Of a stretch of DNA of 64,000 nucleotides, positions 13,664 through 47,760 are shown in pieces. The DNA is taken from the NCBI RefSeq assembly GCF_055900595.2, contig NZ_CM148325.1; one strand, 5' to 3'. Positions within the stretch are counted from its first letter, which is position 1. The number at the start of each line of letters is the position of its first letter. The position numbers and the translations under genes were made by a program. The notes beneath the pieces were generated by a model that was given only the letters and a program-made list of their open reading frames with translations, had not been told where the DNA came from and made no database searches.

Positions 13664-13767
13664 TTCTGGGAACGATGTTTTCGCAGAGTATGGAGAAAAA
13701 TACGCCCTCGGAAAATTCAGAGGGCGTTAGCTCATTAAACCGGCGTTAGCCGATTTCTGTCAGAGAC

Positions 13768-13935
13768 TTACTGTGCAGTAGGACCGCAACCGCCAATGAT
13801 TTTAGAAATAGAAATTGCCGGGTGCAGCAGGTAGTCGTAAGAGCAGTTCTTATCACGGTTTTCAATATGACCAGTACATGCAGTTAACGTAGCCAGTACT
13901 GCACCTACCAGTGCAACTTTAATAAATTTGTTCAT
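13768..13935 (-). CDS. yhfL: small lipoprotein (55 aa; signal peptide plus lipobox LTAC)
   Basis: Hand-translated minus-strand ORF MNKFIKVALVGAVLATLTACTGHIENRDKNCSYDYLLHPAISISKIIGGCGPTAQ; absent from ORF track because under 60 aa. Confidence 0.7.
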   Translation of the reverse strand: MNKFIKVALVGAVLATLTACTGHIENRDKNCSYDYLLHPAISISKIIGGCGPTAQ

Positions 13936-24427: not shown

Positions 24428-24492
<65 letters not shown>

Positions 24493-24515
24493 ATTTGCTC
24501 CAGGCAATGAATATA

Positions 24516-26606
24516 TTACGCCTTCGAATCCCGTAACTTCCGACTCAACCAAATCCCATGATGCGGTCGCTGCCGCCATGCCATCGACGAAATGGTGTGC
24601 ATGGTGTTCAGATGACCAATAACCCGCTGTAAATGCTGCTCCAGCGTGCCTGCTGCACCTTCGTGCGGCTGCATCTCCGGCGCATCCATAATATTGGCAT
24701 CGCCAGAACTACCTGGTTCGTCATATTCCAGTCGCTGCTGACAACGCTGAATGGCGATTTCACAAGACTGCAAATATTCTTGCGCCAGTTCAGGTGGCAA
24801 TGCCCGGTGTTCCCGTGCCAGCGTGGTCATGGCATTGATATGCTCAACAATAAACTGACTGTGCGTTACCCACAGTTTCATATCTGCCAGATAATGGCTG
24901 TTGAATGCCGGTTCCTGCATCGCCTGATTCAATGAGTTATACAGAGTGTTATGCGCCTGATTCACCCGCATTCGCTGCCAGGCCAGTGGCGTTGGTTGCG
25001 GATCCTCGCTCAGAATCAAACGAATCGCTTCCTGATAGGCTTCTAAAGCGTCATGGGCGTTCTTACGCAATAAGCCACTCTGCCACTGCGGCCACAGCCA
25101 GACAGTTCCGCCGAAAGCAATCAAACAACCAATAATGGTGTCGATAAGACGCGGAAGGATGTACTGCTCGCCGTTCAACCACAATAGTTGCAGGGTATAC
25201 ACCGCAGTAATGGTAAAACCGACCGTCGCCCAGCCGTAGTTTTTGCGTAATATCAGGTAGCTGGCGAGGGTGGTAATCAGCATCAAGGTCAGGGTGTAAC
25301 CTTCGGGAATTTTAAAGTGCAGGGCAACGCCCGCAATGATTAACCCGACCACGGTTCCCACGGAGCGATTCACAATCCTCAGACGGGTTGCGCCATAGCC
25401 ATTTTGCGTCACCAGCAATACCGTCATCAGGATCCAGTACGACTTCGGTAGATGCAGTGCGGTGCCCATCAGGCTGGCAACGCTTAACATCACACTGAGT
25501 CGTCCGGCATTGCGTAGCGCCGGAGACTTTAGTGACAGATAACTTTTCAGCGCCGGAAGTAACGGCATTCGCCGCTGTTTATCGGCCAGTAAGTCACGGG
25601 CATAGAGCGGTTTTTGGGTGCGCAGCACGCGGGCGATGCGGCTGAAGTGCCAATAGCAGAATTGCCCAACAGGATTATCCGGATGCTGGCGGGCGATTTT
25701 TTCCAGTGCGCCAATTTGTTTTTCCATCGTAAAGCGCGTCGGCAGGCGATGGTAAAGAATGTCATCAGCCAGCACGCGCAGGCGAGTGGCGACAGTTTGC
25801 GCATTCCAGCGGATAACTTCTTCCGCATGGCTACGCTCGACCAGCTTTTGCACCTCTTCCGGTTGATGCAAGCTGACCGAAATATGTTCCTGTAAATCCA
25901 GCGCCTCCTGGAAAATACGCAGCATCCGCTTGTAATCGGTATTATTTTGCGCGGAAAGCATATGCATTTGCTGATAGCACTGGGTAATTAAATCGACCGC
26001 TTTTTGCTGGCGCACCAGCAGCGGCGGCAGCGCTTTTTCAGGGTCGGTGTGCTGGGTAAGCAGGCTGTATTTAGCTTCGCAATAATCTGCCAGTTCACGG
26101 TACAGCAGACTTAGTGACTCGCGTAGCGGTTGTTCGCGCCAGAGCCAGAACCAAAACCAGTTAAACAGTCCGTACCACAACGTGCCCAGCGCATAGATCA
26201 GCAACGGTTCCCAGACAGGCATGTATCCCGCCAGACTGAGGGTAAAAATGGCGGCGAGTAGTGATGCGGGAAGCAATTTTGCGTGCAATGGCCCCAGCTC
26301 AGCAGTGACGCCAAGTACCAGTGTTAATCCGGTCAGCAAAAAGGGCAGGGGAACATCTTTTGCCAGTAACAGCTGCGTCAGCAAGCTACAGGTGGCAAAC
26401 AGCGACGCACCAATGATTAAGCGTTTGAAAAAACGTTTATGAGGCGTATCAAGGCCCGCAATATTGCAACAAGCAGGAACGAGGGAGAAGAGCAGACCGA
26501 ATCGTAATTCGCCAAGCATTAACCCAACGGCCACGGGCAAACATAGCACCAGCGTTTGTCGAAGTGCATAGTTGATATCGGGGTGATAAATCAGTCTGCG
26601 CCACAT
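24516..26606 (-). CDS. yhfK: large inner-membrane protein of the fusaric-acid-resistance / aromatic acid exporter-like family
   Basis: Start taken at internal ATG (MWRRLIYHPD..., 696 aa); track ORF extends 4 codons upstream to a TTG. Confidence 0.8.
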   Translation of the reverse strand: MWRRLIYHPDINYALRQTLVLCLPVAVGLMLGELRFGLLFSLVPACCNIAGLDTPHKRFFKRLIIGASLFATCSLLTQLLLAKDVPLPFLLTGLTLVLGVTAELGPLHAKLLPASLLAAIFTLSLAGYMPVWEPLLIYALGTLWYGLFNWFWFWLWREQPLRESLSLLYRELADYCEAKYSLLTQHTDPEKALPPLLVRQQKAVDLITQCYQQMHMLSAQNNTDYKRMLRIFQEALDLQEHISVSLHQPEEVQKLVERSHAEEVIRWNAQTVATRLRVLADDILYHRLPTRFTMEKQIGALEKIARQHPDNPVGQFCYWHFSRIARVLRTQKPLYARDLLADKQRRMPLLPALKSYLSLKSPALRNAGRLSVMLSVASLMGTALHLPKSYWILMTVLLVTQNGYGATRLRIVNRSVGTVVGLIIAGVALHFKIPEGYTLTLMLITTLASYLILRKNYGWATVGFTITAVYTLQLLWLNGEQYILPRLIDTIIGCLIAFGGTVWLWPQWQSGLLRKNAHDALEAYQEAIRLILSEDPQPTPLAWQRMRVNQAHNTLYNSLNQAMQEPAFNSHYLADMKLWVTHSQFIVEHINAMTTLAREHRALPPELAQEYLQSCEIAIQRCQQRLEYDEPGSSGDANIMDAPEMQPHEGAAGTLEQHLQRVIGHLNTMHTISSMAWRQRPHHGIWLSRKLRDSKA

Positions 26607-27590: not shown

Positions 27591-27995
27591 ATGCAAGCGC
27601 GAGTGAAGTGGGTCGAAGGGTTAACTTTTCTGGGCGAATCCGCCTCTGGTCACCAGATTTTAATGGACGGCAACTCAGGCGATAAAGCGCCAAGTCCGAT
27701 GGAAATGGTGTTGATGGCGGCGGGGGGCTGTAGCGCCATCGATGTGGTTTCTATCCTGCAAAAGGGGCGTCAGGATGTGGTCGATTGTGAAGTAAAATTG
27801 ACCTCTGAACGCCGCGAAGAGGCACCACGCCTGTTTACGCACATTAATCTGCATTTTATCGTCACCGGTCGCGACCTGAAAGACGCAGCGGTTTCGCGTG
27901 CGGTAGATCTCTCTGCCGAGAAATATTGTTCAGTGGCGTTGATGCTGGAAAAAGCGGTGAATATTACTCACTCGTATGAAGTGGTTGCCGCGTGA
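27591..27995 (+). CDS. yhfA: OsmC/Ohr-family protein
   Basis: 134-aa ORF. Confidence 0.8.
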   Translation: MQARVKWVEGLTFLGESASGHQILMDGNSGDKAPSPMEMVLMAAGGCSAIDVVSILQKGRQDVVDCEVKLTSERREEAPRLFTHINLHFIVTGRDLKDAAVSRAVDLSAEKYCSVALMLEKAVNITHSYEVVAA

Positions 27996-28013
27996 TTTGA
28001 TGTCAGGAGTACG

Positions 28014-28039
28014 ATGCCGGATAATTGTTTATCCGGCAT
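28014..28039. terminator. bidirectional terminator-like palindrome between convergent yhfA and prkB
   Basis: ATGCCGGATAA-ttgt-TTATCCGGCAT perfect 11-bp inverted repeat. Confidence 0.55.
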
Positions 28040-28049
28040 ATTAGCAGAG

Positions 28050-28919
28050 TTACTCGATTTTCTTTCCTTCCATCAATCGTTGCACCAGTGGCAGCATAAT
28101 TAACTCCATTGCCAGACCCATTTTACCGCCCGGCACCACTAATGTATTGATGTGGGAAATGAATGAGCCCTGCAACATCGCCAGCAGCCAGGGGAAATCG
28201 ATCCCTTCCAGATTACGAAAATGGATCACCACAAAGCTTTCATCCAGCGACGGGATAGCTTTTGCCGCGAACGGGTTTGAGGTGTCAACGGTGGGGACGC
28301 GCTGGAAGTTAAGATGGGTGCGGGAAAACTGCGGTGTGATGTAGTTGATATAGTCTTCCATTGAGCGCACTACTGAGTCCATCACTGCTTCTCGTGAGTG
28401 CCCGCGCTCGCTGGTGTCGCGGATCAGTTTTTGAATCCACTCAAGGTTAACGATAGGCACCACGCCAACCAGTAAATCCACATGCTGCGCAACGTTATGA
28501 TGTGGCGTGACGACGCCACCGTGTAGCCCTTCATAAAACAGTACATCAGTGGGTTCCGGTAAAGGTTGCCATGGGGTGAATGTTCCCGGCACCTGATTCC
28601 ACGGTACGGCTTCGTCGTACGTATGCAGATATTTGCGTGATTTTCCTTTGCCGCTCTGACCGTATTCAATGAAGGTTTGTTCCAGCAGGCCGAAGTCGTT
28701 CGCTTCGGGGCCAAAGTAGCTGATATGCCGCCCGGCATCACGCGCCTTGCGGATCGCCATGTCCATTTCCGGGCGCGTGTAACGGTGAAAACTGTCGCCT
28801 TCCACCTCAGCTGCATGCAGATTTAACTGCGCGAATATTTTACGAAACGCGAGACTGGTGGTGGTGGTCCCCGCGCCGCTGGATCCTGTTACCGCAATGA
28901 CCGGATGTTTGGCAGACAT
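28050..28919 (-). CDS. prkB: phosphoribulokinase homologue
   Basis: 289-aa ORF with P-loop GSSGAGTTT. Confidence 0.85.
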   Translation of the reverse strand: MSAKHPVIAVTGSSGAGTTTTSLAFRKIFAQLNLHAAEVEGDSFHRYTRPEMDMAIRKARDAGRHISYFGPEANDFGLLEQTFIEYGQSGKGKSRKYLHTYDEAVPWNQVPGTFTPWQPLPEPTDVLFYEGLHGGVVTPHHNVAQHVDLLVGVVPIVNLEWIQKLIRDTSERGHSREAVMDSVVRSMEDYINYITPQFSRTHLNFQRVPTVDTSNPFAAKAIPSLDESFVVIHFRNLEGIDFPWLLAMLQGSFISHINTLVVPGGKMGLAMELIMLPLVQRLMEGKKIE

Positions 28920-34910: not shown

Positions 34911-35501
34911 ATGAAAGTAGCAAAAGACCTGGTGGTCAGCCTGGCCTATCAGGTACGTACAGAAGACGGTGTGTTGGTTGATGAGTCTCCGGTGAGTGCG
35001 CCGCTGGACTACCTGCATGGTCACGGTTCCCTGATCTCTGGCCTGGAAACGGCGCTGGAAGGTCACGAAGTTGGCGACAAATTTGATGTCGCTGTTGGCG
35101 CGAACGACGCTTATGGTCAATACGACGAAAACCTGGTGCAGCGCGTTCCTAAAGATGTATTTATGGGCGTTGATGAACTGCAGGTTGGTATGCGTTTCCT
35201 GGCTGAAACCGACCAGGGTCCGGTACCGGTTGAAATCACTGCGGTTGAAGACGATCACGTCGTGGTTGATGGTAACCACATGCTGGCCGGTCAGAACCTG
35301 AAATTCAACGTTGAAGTTGTGGCGATTCGCGAAGCGACTGAAGAAGAGCTGGCTCATGGCCACGTTCACGGTGCGCACGATCATCACCACGATCACGACC
35401 ACGACGGTTGCTGCGGTGGTCATGGCCACGATCACGGTCATGAGCACGGTGGCGAAGGCTGCTGTGGCGGTAAAGGTAACGGCGGTTGCGGTTGCCACTA
35501 A
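34911..35501 (+). CDS. slyD: FKBP-type peptidyl-prolyl isomerase SlyD with His/Cys-rich metal-binding tail
   Basis: 196-aa ORF; C-terminal tail HGHVHGAHDHHHDHDHDGCCGGHGHDHGHEHGGEGCCGG. Confidence 0.95.
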   Translation: MKVAKDLVVSLAYQVRTEDGVLVDESPVSAPLDYLHGHGSLISGLETALEGHEVGDKFDVAVGANDAYGQYDENLVQRVPKDVFMGVDELQVGMRFLAETDQGPVPVEITAVEDDHVVVDGNHMLAGQNLKFNVEVVAIREATEEELAHGHVHGAHDHHHDHDHDGCCGGHGHDHGHEHGGEGCCGGKGNGGCGCH

Positions 35502-35515
35502 TACCGAAAAAGTGA

Positions 35516-35545
35516 CAAAAAAGCGGGGAATCCCCGCTTTTTTTA
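35516..35545. terminator. bidirectional rho-independent terminator between convergent slyD and slyX
   Basis: AAAAAAGCGGGG-aat-CCCCGCTTTTTTT with A-run and T-run on either side. Confidence 0.8.
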
Positions 35546-35549
35546 CGCC

Positions 35550-35768
35550 TCAATAATGTGGCGGTGGCGTTTCTTCAGCCTGCGACGCGATGTTCGACGG
35601 CTGGCTGGCTTTTAGCTTCTCGGTCAGCAGACGCAGATGATCGCGCAGTTTCGCCATCTCCATTTCATGAGCGGTCACCGTGACGTTCAGTTCTTCAATG
35701 GTGATTTCCTGAAAAGCCAGTCGGCTCTCCAGCTCTGCCAGGCGTGCTTCCAATGATAAATCCTGCAT
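35550..35768 (-). CDS. slyX: small coiled-coil protein SlyX
   Basis: 72-aa ORF. Confidence 0.75.
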
Positions 35769-39882: not shown

Positions 39883-42009
<2,127 letters not shown>

Positions 42010-42022
42010 GCCTAAGGGTTAA

Positions 42023-43264
<1,242 letters not shown>

Positions 43265-43288
43265 TTACACGTTAATTAGTTTCGAATT

Positions 43289-43314
43289 AAAAAGGGCGCT
43301 TCGGCGCCCTTTTT
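43289..43314 (+). terminator. rho-independent terminator after tufA
   Basis: AAAAAGGGCGC-ttcg-GCGCCCTTTTT. Confidence 0.85.
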
Positions 43315-43391
43315 GCTGCCCGTAATTTGAGCTCGAAATATTTAGTCGTAATTTCACTCGCTGAACTATGGCGCAAATTAAACTGTGCTAT

Positions 43392-43413
43392 TGTAATCAT
43401 AACCATTCTCATT
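43392..43413 (+). promoter_or_regulatory. putative Fur-box-like element upstream of bfd
   Basis: TGTAATCATAACCATTCTCATT, AT-rich hexamer repeats resembling GATAATGATAATCATTATC, 33 nt before the bfd start. Confidence 0.35.
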
Positions 43414-43446
43414 TACACTTTGCGCAGAATTTGAACGGGAGCAATC

Positions 43447-43641
43447 ATGTACGTTTGTTTGTGTAATGGTGTAAGTGACAAAAAAATTCGCCAGGCAGTC
43501 CGTCAGTTTCATCCGCAATCTTTCCAACAATTGCGTAAGTTTATTCCTGTGGGAAATCAATGCGGTAAGTGCATTCGCGCCGCGCGCGAAGTGATGCAGG
43601 ACGAGTTGATGCAGATGCCAGAATTTAAAGAGATTGCCTGA
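43447..43641 (+). CDS. bfd: bacterioferritin-associated ferredoxin
   Basis: 64-aa ORF with [2Fe-2S] cysteines (CLCNGVSD ... NQCGKC). Confidence 0.85.
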   Translation: MYVCLCNGVSDKKIRQAVRQFHPQSFQQLRKFIPVGNQCGKCIRAAREVMQDELMQMPEFKEIA

Positions 43642-43713
43642 AGCCCACGCTTATTTTTTGACATCCCGCTAGCCCCATCTACGCTCTAATAGTGGAAGCG
43701 GAGGGACTATAAA

Positions 43714-44190
43714 ATGAAAGGTGATGTTAAAATCATAAATTATCTCAATAAACTATTGGGAAATGAGCTTGTCGCAATCAATCAGTATTTTCTCCATGCC
43801 CGGATGTTTAAAAACTGGGGCCTGATGCGTCTCAATGACGTCGAATACCATGAATCTATTGATGAGATGAAACACGCTGATAAATATATCGAGCGTATTT
43901 TGTTTTTAGAAGGAATCCCTAACTTACAGGATTTAGGCAAACTGGGGATTGGTGAAGATGTCGAGGAGATGCTGCAATCCGACCTGCGATTAGAACTGGA
44001 AGGCGCGAAGGATCTCCGTGAGGCTATCGCGTATGCCGACAGCGTTCATGACTATGTTAGCCGTGATATGATGATCGAGATCCTTGCCGATGAAGAAGGT
44101 CATATTGACTGGCTCGAAACTGAGCTGGATCTCATCGGTAAAATCGGTTTACAAAATTACCTGCAATCACAAATAAAAGTTAAAGATTAA
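43714..44190 (+). CDS. bfr: bacterioferritin
   Basis: 158-aa ORF, N-term [31 protein letters not shown]. Confidence 0.95.
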
Positions 44191-44654
44191 CGGCCTGCCA
44201 GCAAACTATCCCAGCCTACAACGAAACCCGCAGCCGCCAGAAATGGCCCAAACGGCAGCGGGTTTTTTAATGACTCTTTTCCTCTCATGAGCAGACCAAT
44301 AACTACGGCTCCGCAAGCGAATGAGGCAGCAAGGAAAACCAGTCGTGGCAAGAAGGTCCATGTATGCCAGGCACCAAGGGCGGCGAGAAACTTCACATCA
44401 CCATAGCCTAATCCTTCTTTATGACGCAGTATGCGATACCCCCAGTAAATGACAGCGAATGTGCCGTAACCAATAATCGCCCCCCATAACGCATCGGCTA
44501 AACCGTCAGGATTACAAACCTGATAGAACAAAAGACCTGACCAGAGTAACGGGCACGTAAATCTGTCAGGTAACAAGCCATGCTTTGCATCCCAGAAAAA
44601 AAGTAGGGCTGATAAACAAGCGTACAAAATCAGAAAGGGAAGGGTAGCGTCCAT
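44187..44654 (-). CDS. short-form prepilin (leader) peptidase, A24 family, HopD-like
   Basis: 155-aa polytopic ORF with [14 protein letters not shown] (GxGD catalytic aspartate motif); stop codon shares 3 nt with the bfr stop. Confidence 0.7.
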
Positions 44655-44827
44655 AAAACATCCTCTGTAATTGGAGTATCACCATCGAATAACTGCGGAT
44701 GCTCAGCAACAGAGAAATCGCTGATTTGTTAACCTGATTCCGGTGAAAAACGCTATCTTCACAACCTTACAAATTTCGTGGAATGCAGCTCGCAATCTGC
44801 GCGTTGCGATTAATTTCTACCCGATGC

Positions 44828-44855
44828 TTGCGTCAGGCTCAGATTTGCGTATAAT
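44828..44855 (+). promoter_or_regulatory. S10 operon promoter (-35 TTGCGT, 16-nt spacer, -10 TATAAT)
   Basis: Hexamers about 180 nt upstream of rpsJ, consistent with the known long S10 leader. Confidence 0.7.
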
Positions 44856-44861
44856 GCGCGG

Positions 44862-45344
<483 letters not shown>

Positions 45345-45364
45345 TCAGGTCATTGAGCGATTGA

Positions 45365-47760
<2,396 letters not shown>

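Follow-up and report, generated by a model that had tools for sequence, protein, structure and literature searches.

In a survey of 58 prokaryotic genomes the most frequent length of gene overlaps was 4 nt, and convergent overlaps show an abrupt rise in number at this same value, a feature ascribed to the four-base sequences CTAA, TTAA, CTAG and TTAG, which allow each of two convergent genes to stop on the other (Lillo & Krakauer 2007, PMC2174442). The ending of transcription at convergent E. coli genes has been approached by single-molecule experiments and SEnd-seq, which led to a model of collision-assisted termination, with head-on collisions positioned by stem-loops helping to terminate such pairs (Wang, Watters, Ju & Liu, bioRxiv 10.1101/2022.10.23.513370). 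For Salmonella, bfd-bfr-hopD has been described as an insertion that lies between the str and S10 operons (Brandis, Cao & Hughes 2019, PMC6735719), and in a pan-genome study bfd and bfr were classed as "accessory", with a presence pattern exactly that of gsp and chiA (PMC11390585).

Here we describe the junction of bfr and hopD in a 64,000-nt stretch of E. coli DNA (contig NZ_CM148325.1 of assembly GCF_055900595.2), referred to below as the window. A first-pass annotation of this stretch had pointed to a stop-codon overlap between bfr and a convergent prepilin-peptidase gene, and had proposed that, with no intergenic terminator, transcription from the two sides would collide there. The junction is an ordinary, evolutionarily old and compact tail-to-tail arrangement that is already annotated. 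Our analysis makes it likely that the terminator of bfr is embedded in hopD, and that hopD is weakly transcribed and runs antisense into bfr.

Gene identities and the shared stop codons

The locus reads fusA-tufA-bfd-bfr on the plus strand, followed by hopD on the other strand and then by rpsJ and the S10 operon. The features at the junction are:

43447..43641, plus strand: bfd, bacterioferritin-associated ferredoxin, 64 aa (PF04324, E 9.7e-16; same coordinates in RefSeq)
43714..44190, plus strand: bfr, bacterioferritin, 158 aa (ORF list, TIGR00754, PF00210, RefSeq CDS)
44654..44187, minus strand: hopD, A24-family (prepilin) peptidase, 155 aa (PF01478, orthologues, dN/dS)
44187..44190, both strands: shared stop tetramer TTAA (direct reading; same overlap in RefSeq genomes)

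The matches to TIGR00754, PF00210 and PF01478 bear out the identities first given to the two convergent genes. Bfr scores 267 bits against the equivalog model TIGR00754 (cut-off 125.55) over residues 1-155 and is 88-90% identical to K-12 Bfr; the bfd gene is the first of the bfd-bfr unit reading toward the junction. Upstream of bfd, at 43385-43415, there is an AT-rich, partly palindromic stretch, ATTGTAATCATAACCATTCTCATT, which by eye resembles a Fur-box-like operator. A search of 42000-46000 with Rfam returned nothing relevant at E <= 1.

HopD matches PF01478 (Peptidase_A24) with 78.9 bits (cut-off 26.5) over residues 10-118. The protein starts about 9 residues ahead of this domain and has no equivalent of the N-terminal cytoplasmic (N-methyltransferase) part of the bifunctional PilD-type enzymes, and we classify it by its domain content as a peptidase-domain-only member of the A24 family. 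With the C-terminal 140 residues of K-12 GspO it shares 41% identity, the alignment covering residues 80-215 of that 225-aa protein. Its D30 (LLPD) and D86 (GYGD) fall opposite the LLPD and GYGD motifs of GspO in the alignment, and we take these aspartates to be the catalytic residues of the family. Both motifs are kept in nine of ten full-length HopD orthologues, the Silvania protein having N at the first. This substitution, LLPN in place of LLPD, lies in an otherwise intact protein (Silvania hatchlandensis, locus L003, 775-1248), which may be inactive as a peptidase. Against the orthologues of nine other taxa HopD gives dN/dS values of 0.12-0.28 at a dS that is saturated (at least 1.4), values that place it under purifying selection as judged by codon comparison; Bfr is far more constrained, with a dN/dS of about 0.02. 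We considered HopD as a truncated remnant of K-12 GspO and rejected this idea, given that the identity is only 41% and that the HopD form is common to 11 taxa. None of the retrieved papers that name hopD reports a function or an activity assay.

The tetramer TTAA at 44187-44190 can be read directly in the sequence: the bfr stop is the TAA at 44188-44190 on the plus strand, and the hopD stop is the TAA formed by the reverse complement of 44187-44189. The two coding sequences thereby have 4 nt in common, and their stop codons, tail to tail, 2 nt. Direct reading and the ORF list thus confirm the dual use of the tetramer that the first-pass annotation had reported. That annotation had also named revised start or stop calls as something that might remove the overlap; re-annotation is unable to do so because the reading frames fix both stop positions, and the RefSeq coordinates are identical. 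RefSeq annotates an identical 4-nt overlap of bfr with a "prepilin peptidase" gene in NZ_CP169399.1, which is collinear with the window at 99.8% identity, and an identical bfr/hopD overlap in an O157:H7 genome (97.5% identity to the window); about 42% of complete E. coli genomes have the arrangement. With two genuine genes on opposite strands and both of their stops within TTAA, the junction falls into the class of 4-nt convergent overlaps at YTAR tetramers. Any minus-strand frame that meets a ...Y TAR stop in the proper phase would end there, and the overlap is no more than chance would give.

Comparative anatomy of the junction

We gathered hopD loci by a protein search followed by contig look-ups, exact-word patterns of HopD peptides (two loci) having been too strict. 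The E. coli window was compared with the loci of Salmonella, Citrobacter pasteurii, C. amalonaticus, Intestinirhabdus, Raoultella, Lelliottia, Enterobacter, Phytobacter, Silvania and Kosakonia, a total of 11 taxa. The HopD orthologues are 155-161 aa long and 55-67% identical across the Enterobacteriaceae, and several of them, from Salmonella and other genera, are named "leader peptidase HopD" by their sources. Every locus that is long enough has the order tufA-bfd-bfr><hopD<>rpsJ, and the shorter loci of Silvania and Kosakonia contain at least the bfr-hopD junction. The bfr gene of Lelliottia (locus L008, 1958-2344) is called at 128 aa as against 158 aa in the other taxa, probably through a miscalled start codon or a 5' lesion.

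The 3' ends of bfr and hopD overlap in all 11 taxa examined. E. coli, Salmonella and Intestinirhabdus, with TTAA, and C. pasteurii, with CTAA, have an overlap of 4 nt; it is 17 nt in six taxa and 24 nt in Raoultella, and these three lengths fall in different reading phases. As both the length and the phase of the overlap vary, the TTAA tetramer itself is not under selection. By this comparison the conserved feature is the missing spacer between bfr and hopD rather than the tetramer, to which no special function of its own is to be ascribed.

The variation can be traced to the end of HopD, whose conserved core stops at about residue 148; the tail that follows the Gly-Trp at 147-148 varies in length as well as in sequence. 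Such a tail would run on to the first in-frame stop antisense to the 3' end of bfr. In the present E. coli lineage this stop would be the TTA complementary to the ...T TAA of bfr, yielding TTAA.

A terminator-like hairpin inside hopD

The statement that there is no intergenic terminator holds in the literal sense that there is no intergenic DNA at all. Its implication that nothing stops transcription at this point finds no support, for a conserved GC-rich hairpin followed by UUUUUU lies inside hopD:

44224..44268, plus strand: predicted intrinsic terminator of bfd-bfr (folding, scan for hairpin plus U-rich tail, conservation in 11 taxa)

The element reads AAACCCGCAGCCGCCAGAAAUGGCCCAAACGGCAGCGGGUUUUUU on the plus strand and is placed 34-78 nt past the bfr stop, within hopD codons L129-F144, its nucleotides also encoding the 14-residue HopD motif K130-G143. 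A GC stem is formed by 44227-35 with 44254-62, interrupted by one A·A mismatch; it is extended outward by A-U pairs of 44224-26 with 44263-65 and inward by a helix of 44236-39 with 44244-47 beyond a 6-nt internal loop. The U tract at 44263-68 follows directly after the stem. The predicted folding energy is -23.6 kcal/mol (z -4.2), with none of 200 shuffled sequences as good. The mismatch and the internal loop are departures from the textbook form of a terminator stem; the stable GC-rich stem-loop, the adjoining U-rich tract and the short distance from the bfr stop are those of an intrinsic terminator.

In a scan of 43600-44760 for hairpins with a U-rich tail this element ranks first on the plus strand by a wide margin, and the same scan gave no other plus-strand candidate between 44190 and 44760. 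A consensus terminator scan called none at the junction. That scan allows loops of at most 8 nt and missed the 44224-44268 hairpin because its loop is longer than this. It also missed an obvious terminator of tufA, so its negatives are weak evidence; we set them aside in favor of direct folding and the scan for hairpin plus U tail. The tufA terminator, AAAAAGGGCGC-UUCG-GCGCCCUUUUU, lies at 43270-43312 with -15.8 kcal/mol, and our guess is that it escaped the consensus scan since its stem extends into the A and U runs.

The hairpin is found in 11 of 11 taxa, 92.6% of the cells of the alignment forming standard pairs, a figure that falls to 25-53% on shifting the 3' partners by 1-3 columns. The U tail has at least 5 U in 8 positions in ten taxa, the exception being Raoultella with a poor tail (TTGTTCAG), and in 10 of 11 no gap separates the A6/U6 run from the stem. 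Covariation is weak, comprising one compensatory change from G-C to A-U, in Salmonella, and several G-U changes; it does not exceed the shuffle controls, 93-101 of 500 shuffles being as good, and is not used here as evidence. What maintains the hairpin is mainly a lack of change, within a protein motif that is itself invariant.

The structure also folds in the sense of hopD, with -23.8 kcal/mol, and its reverse complement heads the minus-strand candidates in the scan of 43600-44760. In this sense the U tail is poorer (UUUCGUUG, 4-6 U in 8 positions across the taxa) and lies inside a translated ORF. The stability of the hairpin by itself leaves the strand unsettled, the mean difference between the two senses being -1.4 kcal/mol (Wilcoxon p 0.12).

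An element embedded in a conserved protein motif might owe its own conservation to the protein, and we compared codon usage at those hopD positions where the amino acid is conserved in at least nine of ten sequences. On average, the pairwise codon difference amounts to 0.29 in the 11 hairpin codons and to 0.63 in 49 other hopD codons (Mann-Whitney p 8e-5). When the 4- and 6-fold-degenerate codons alone are taken, the values are 0.35 in the hairpin and 0.70 elsewhere (p 1e-4), both comparisons to be read with the caveat that the overall dS of hopD is saturated (1.4 or more). Outside the hairpin the pairwise difference ranges over 0.47-0.89 for Leu, 0.47-0.83 for Ala, 0.53-0.80 for Gly and 0.73-0.80 for Pro, as against 0.0-0.6 for the paired hairpin codons. 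The third position of G136, which is paired in just 8 of 11 taxa, stays variable. These differences indicate that a constraint at the nucleotide level acts on the hairpin codons besides that on the protein, and a dual constraint, by the predicted terminator and by HopD K130-G143, explains the suppressed synonymous change.

It is conceivable that the hairpin is a by-product of coding, K130-G143 being self-complementary when written in preferred codons (CCG, CTG, GCG, GGT), and that bfr ends elsewhere or by the action of Rho. The motif is indeed invariant in ten of ten full-length orthologues, the conserved codons are mostly common enterobacterial ones, and the covariation is non-significant. 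We nevertheless find this explanation quite improbable: the same amino acids elsewhere in hopD use freely varying codons, the A6/U6 run keeps its place against the stem in all but one taxon, and the plus strand has no alternative candidate. Moreover, the homologous part of K-12 gspO shows by eye no comparable GC stem with a T run, a hairpin being found instead in the intergenic DNA of that junction.

Transcription across the junction

The region upstream of hopD has two promoter-like blocks facing away from each other:

44691..44719, minus strand: tentative weak hopD promoter, TTGCTG, 17 nt, GATGGT (a prediction)
44828..44855, plus strand: TTGCGT-16-TATAAT, presumed promoter block of the S10 (rpsJ) operon, invariant in a 9-taxon alignment

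A Shine-Dalgarno sequence, GAGGA, stands about 8 nt before the hopD ATG at 44654. In the 9-taxon alignment the elements TTGnnn and nAnnnT recur at the spacing of the candidate hopD promoter in a region that is otherwise poorly conserved, and the consensus scan does not report TTGCTG-17-GATGGT. The block TTGCGT-16-TATAAT, which presumably is the S10 operon promoter, is divergent from hopD and is also where the segment distinguishing the two E. coli haplotypes ends on the right; K-12-type genomes match the window again, at 100%, from 44849.

The events at the junction may be pictured as follows. The bfd-bfr transcripts would most likely end at the embedded hairpin, about 76-80 nt past the bfr stop, as its structure and conservation suggest; the terminator lies inside hopD because no spacer exists. 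hopD would be transcribed weakly, to judge from the appearance of its promoter, from a poor start back to back with the S10 promoter. Its polymerase would have to cross the same hairpin in the opposite sense, where the U tail is poor and ribosomes would cover the RNA when it is translated. Past the hopD stop the hairpin-plus-U scan of 43600-44760 gave no convincing or conserved terminator on the minus strand, which makes read-through antisense to bfr plausible. Immediately ahead of the hopD stop is a hairpin (-13.3 kcal/mol) that precedes the U-rich antisense of the last codons of bfr; it was considered as a hopD terminator, and we do not claim it as such because it lies in the non-conserved tail region. 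The antisense transcription would probably be halted by Rho or by polymerases coming from bfr. The RNA antisense to bfr has 71 C as against 44 G between +60 and +300 past the hopD stop, and such a C-rich, G-poor composition would be compatible with Rho-dependent termination of an RNA that is not translated.

Head-on encounters of polymerases, as originally proposed for this junction, are possible within the last 80 nt or so, or more, of hopD; they are probably infrequent, and their frequency would depend on the strength of the hopD promoter. In a stronger form the proposal would be that no terminator acts at all, and that collision, or the complementary 3' ends of the two RNAs, is the main means of termination or regulation, in the manner of an excludon or of a collision-driven device. 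The missing spacer, the best candidate after the hopD stop being that non-conserved hairpin of -13.3 kcal/mol, and the ability of the embedded hairpin to fold in both senses would all suit such a scheme, and the idea is not absurd because termination by stem-loop-positioned collisions has been published for convergent E. coli pairs (bioRxiv 10.1101/2022.10.23.513370). Set against this, a conserved hairpin with U6, of the strength of a canonical terminator, serves the bfr direction, and the hopD promoter is weak-looking and not conserved, so that collisions should be rare relative to bfr transcription. The shifts of overlap length and phase among the genera likewise speak against a tuned interference device. 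Collision is not needed to explain the junction, and we regard it as unlikely to be the main mechanism there.

A further possibility, which we consider rather doubtful, is that the hairpin is a dual-function, bidirectional terminator inside a coding sequence which also cuts some of the hopD transcripts. These would then be ended in part 12 codons before the stop, giving rise to non-stop mRNAs. Were this true, HopD would be very low unless translation or polymerase traffic from the bfr side modulates the effect, the peptidase would be coupled to the iron- or stationary-phase-controlled transcription of bfr, and the invariance of HopD K130-G143 would be due in part to the RNA element as well as to the protein.

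Literature searches for Term-seq, TSS and expression data on hopD and bfr in EHEC and Salmonella yielded two microarray mentions and no RNA 3' ends. In O157:H7 Sakai the gene ECs4188 (hopD) was up 2.4-fold at a growth transition (PMC2241611), and up 2.4-2.7-fold on lettuce, where the same table names uspB and gadE (PMC6891304). If the probes were not strand-specific, this signal might equally be that of the bfr 3' UTR. Some caution is called for, as expression assigned to hopD by methods that are not strand-specific may belong to the 3' UTR of bfr.

E. coli haplotypes and variants of hopD

E. coli is dimorphic over about 43265-44849, from the end of tufA to the S10 promoter. The bfd-bfr-hopD arrangement of the window is present in 2253 of 5426 complete genomes, and most or all of the remainder have chiA-bfd-bfr-gspO...gspC/gspAB. 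The two E. coli bfr alleles agree in only 80% of their nucleotides and 88% of their amino acids, with a dS of 1.46, which makes them as distant as those of different genera. The Bfr of K-12 lies equally far (dN 0.07-0.10) from that of each of the 11 taxa, as compared with a dN of 0.01-0.04 between the window Bfr and the other ten. From these distances it seems that the chiA/gsp island replaced the ancestral segment and carried its own bfd-bfr with it. The "accessory" status of bfd and bfr would then probably reflect a split between bfr alleles and not a true presence or absence.

The A6 run in the hopD sense (44263-44268) looks like a hotspot of frameshifts. The variant protein P0004 (148 aa, 103 member sequences) changes frame exactly at this run and, mapped to the frame of the window, would end at 44206 and not overlap bfr. 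P0010, P0014 and P0020 share the same shifted C-terminal frame, with frameshifts at or upstream of the A6 run, and in P0003 (165 aa, 262 member sequences) and P0014 the N-terminus is shifted. This suggests that hopD is in the course of being lost in some E. coli and Shigella lineages.

Such variants could be taken further, to mean that hopD is altogether a decaying relic in E. coli and that the "overlap" is simply the bfr 3' UTR and its terminator lying in a dying ORF. Frameshifted forms (P0004, P0003, P0014) are common in the protein collection, Shigella flexneri has partial copies, hopD is absent from 58% of complete E. coli genomes, Asn has taken the place of the first catalytic Asp in Silvania, and the retrieved literature on hopD is silent on function. 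Nevertheless, the window carries an intact hopD ORF, P0001, the largest cluster (1988 member sequences), is of full length, the dN/dS against nine other taxa stays at 0.12-0.28, albeit over a saturated dS, and the Asp motifs persist in nine of ten orthologues. We hold this explanation to be highly improbable, and retain that of an old junction of two genuine genes with the bfr terminator inside hopD.

Comparison with known convergent junctions

The TTAA overlap as such is the textbook outcome of the complementarity of stop codons and matters little. What is mildly new is a terminator-like hairpin that is also protein-coding and whose footprint is a halving of synonymous variation across 11 enterobacterial taxa. 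Within the window bfr/hopD is the only overlapping pair among five convergent ones, and the regions between the other four each contain a stable hairpin:

13689-13798: yhfS/yhfL spacer region, spacer of 104 nt
24452-24517: argD/yhfK spacer region, spacer of 60 nt
27993-28052: yhfA/prkB spacer region, spacer of 54 nt
35500-35553: slyD/slyX spacer region, spacer of 48 nt

A hairpin at convergent 3' ends is thus the local norm. The slyD/slyX spacer holds a textbook bidirectional terminator, AAAAAAGCGGGG-AAU-CCCCGCUUUUUUU, and the bfr/hopD hairpin is like it in being GC-rich, bordered by runs of A and U, and able to fold in both senses. Unlike it, the bfr/hopD hairpin is intragenic, lying 12-27 codons before the end of hopD, and is also read as protein; and unlike intergenic bidirectional terminators in general, its U tail is good in the bfr direction only.

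Salmonella enterica has an orthologous junction, in which hopD (about 67% amino acid identity) occupies the corresponding place, likewise overlaps bfr through TTAA and contains the hairpin, there with an interrupted U tail (TTTATTAA) and with the one stem pair that has gone from G-C to A-U. In the chiA-bfd-bfr / gspO-gspC arrangement of K-12, bfr is likewise convergent with the gene for an A24 peptidase, the 225-aa GspO described above, and a hairpin is nearby. There the two genes do not overlap, being separated by a 28-nt spacer with GGGAGGG-AGAA-CCCTCCC (-17 kcal/mol) and no U tract. Compared with the published class of 4-nt convergent overlaps (PMC2174442), bfr/hopD has exactly that configuration and shows no difference in kind; it stands apart in that the overlap can be traced through 11 taxa, in which it changes to 17 or 24 nt.
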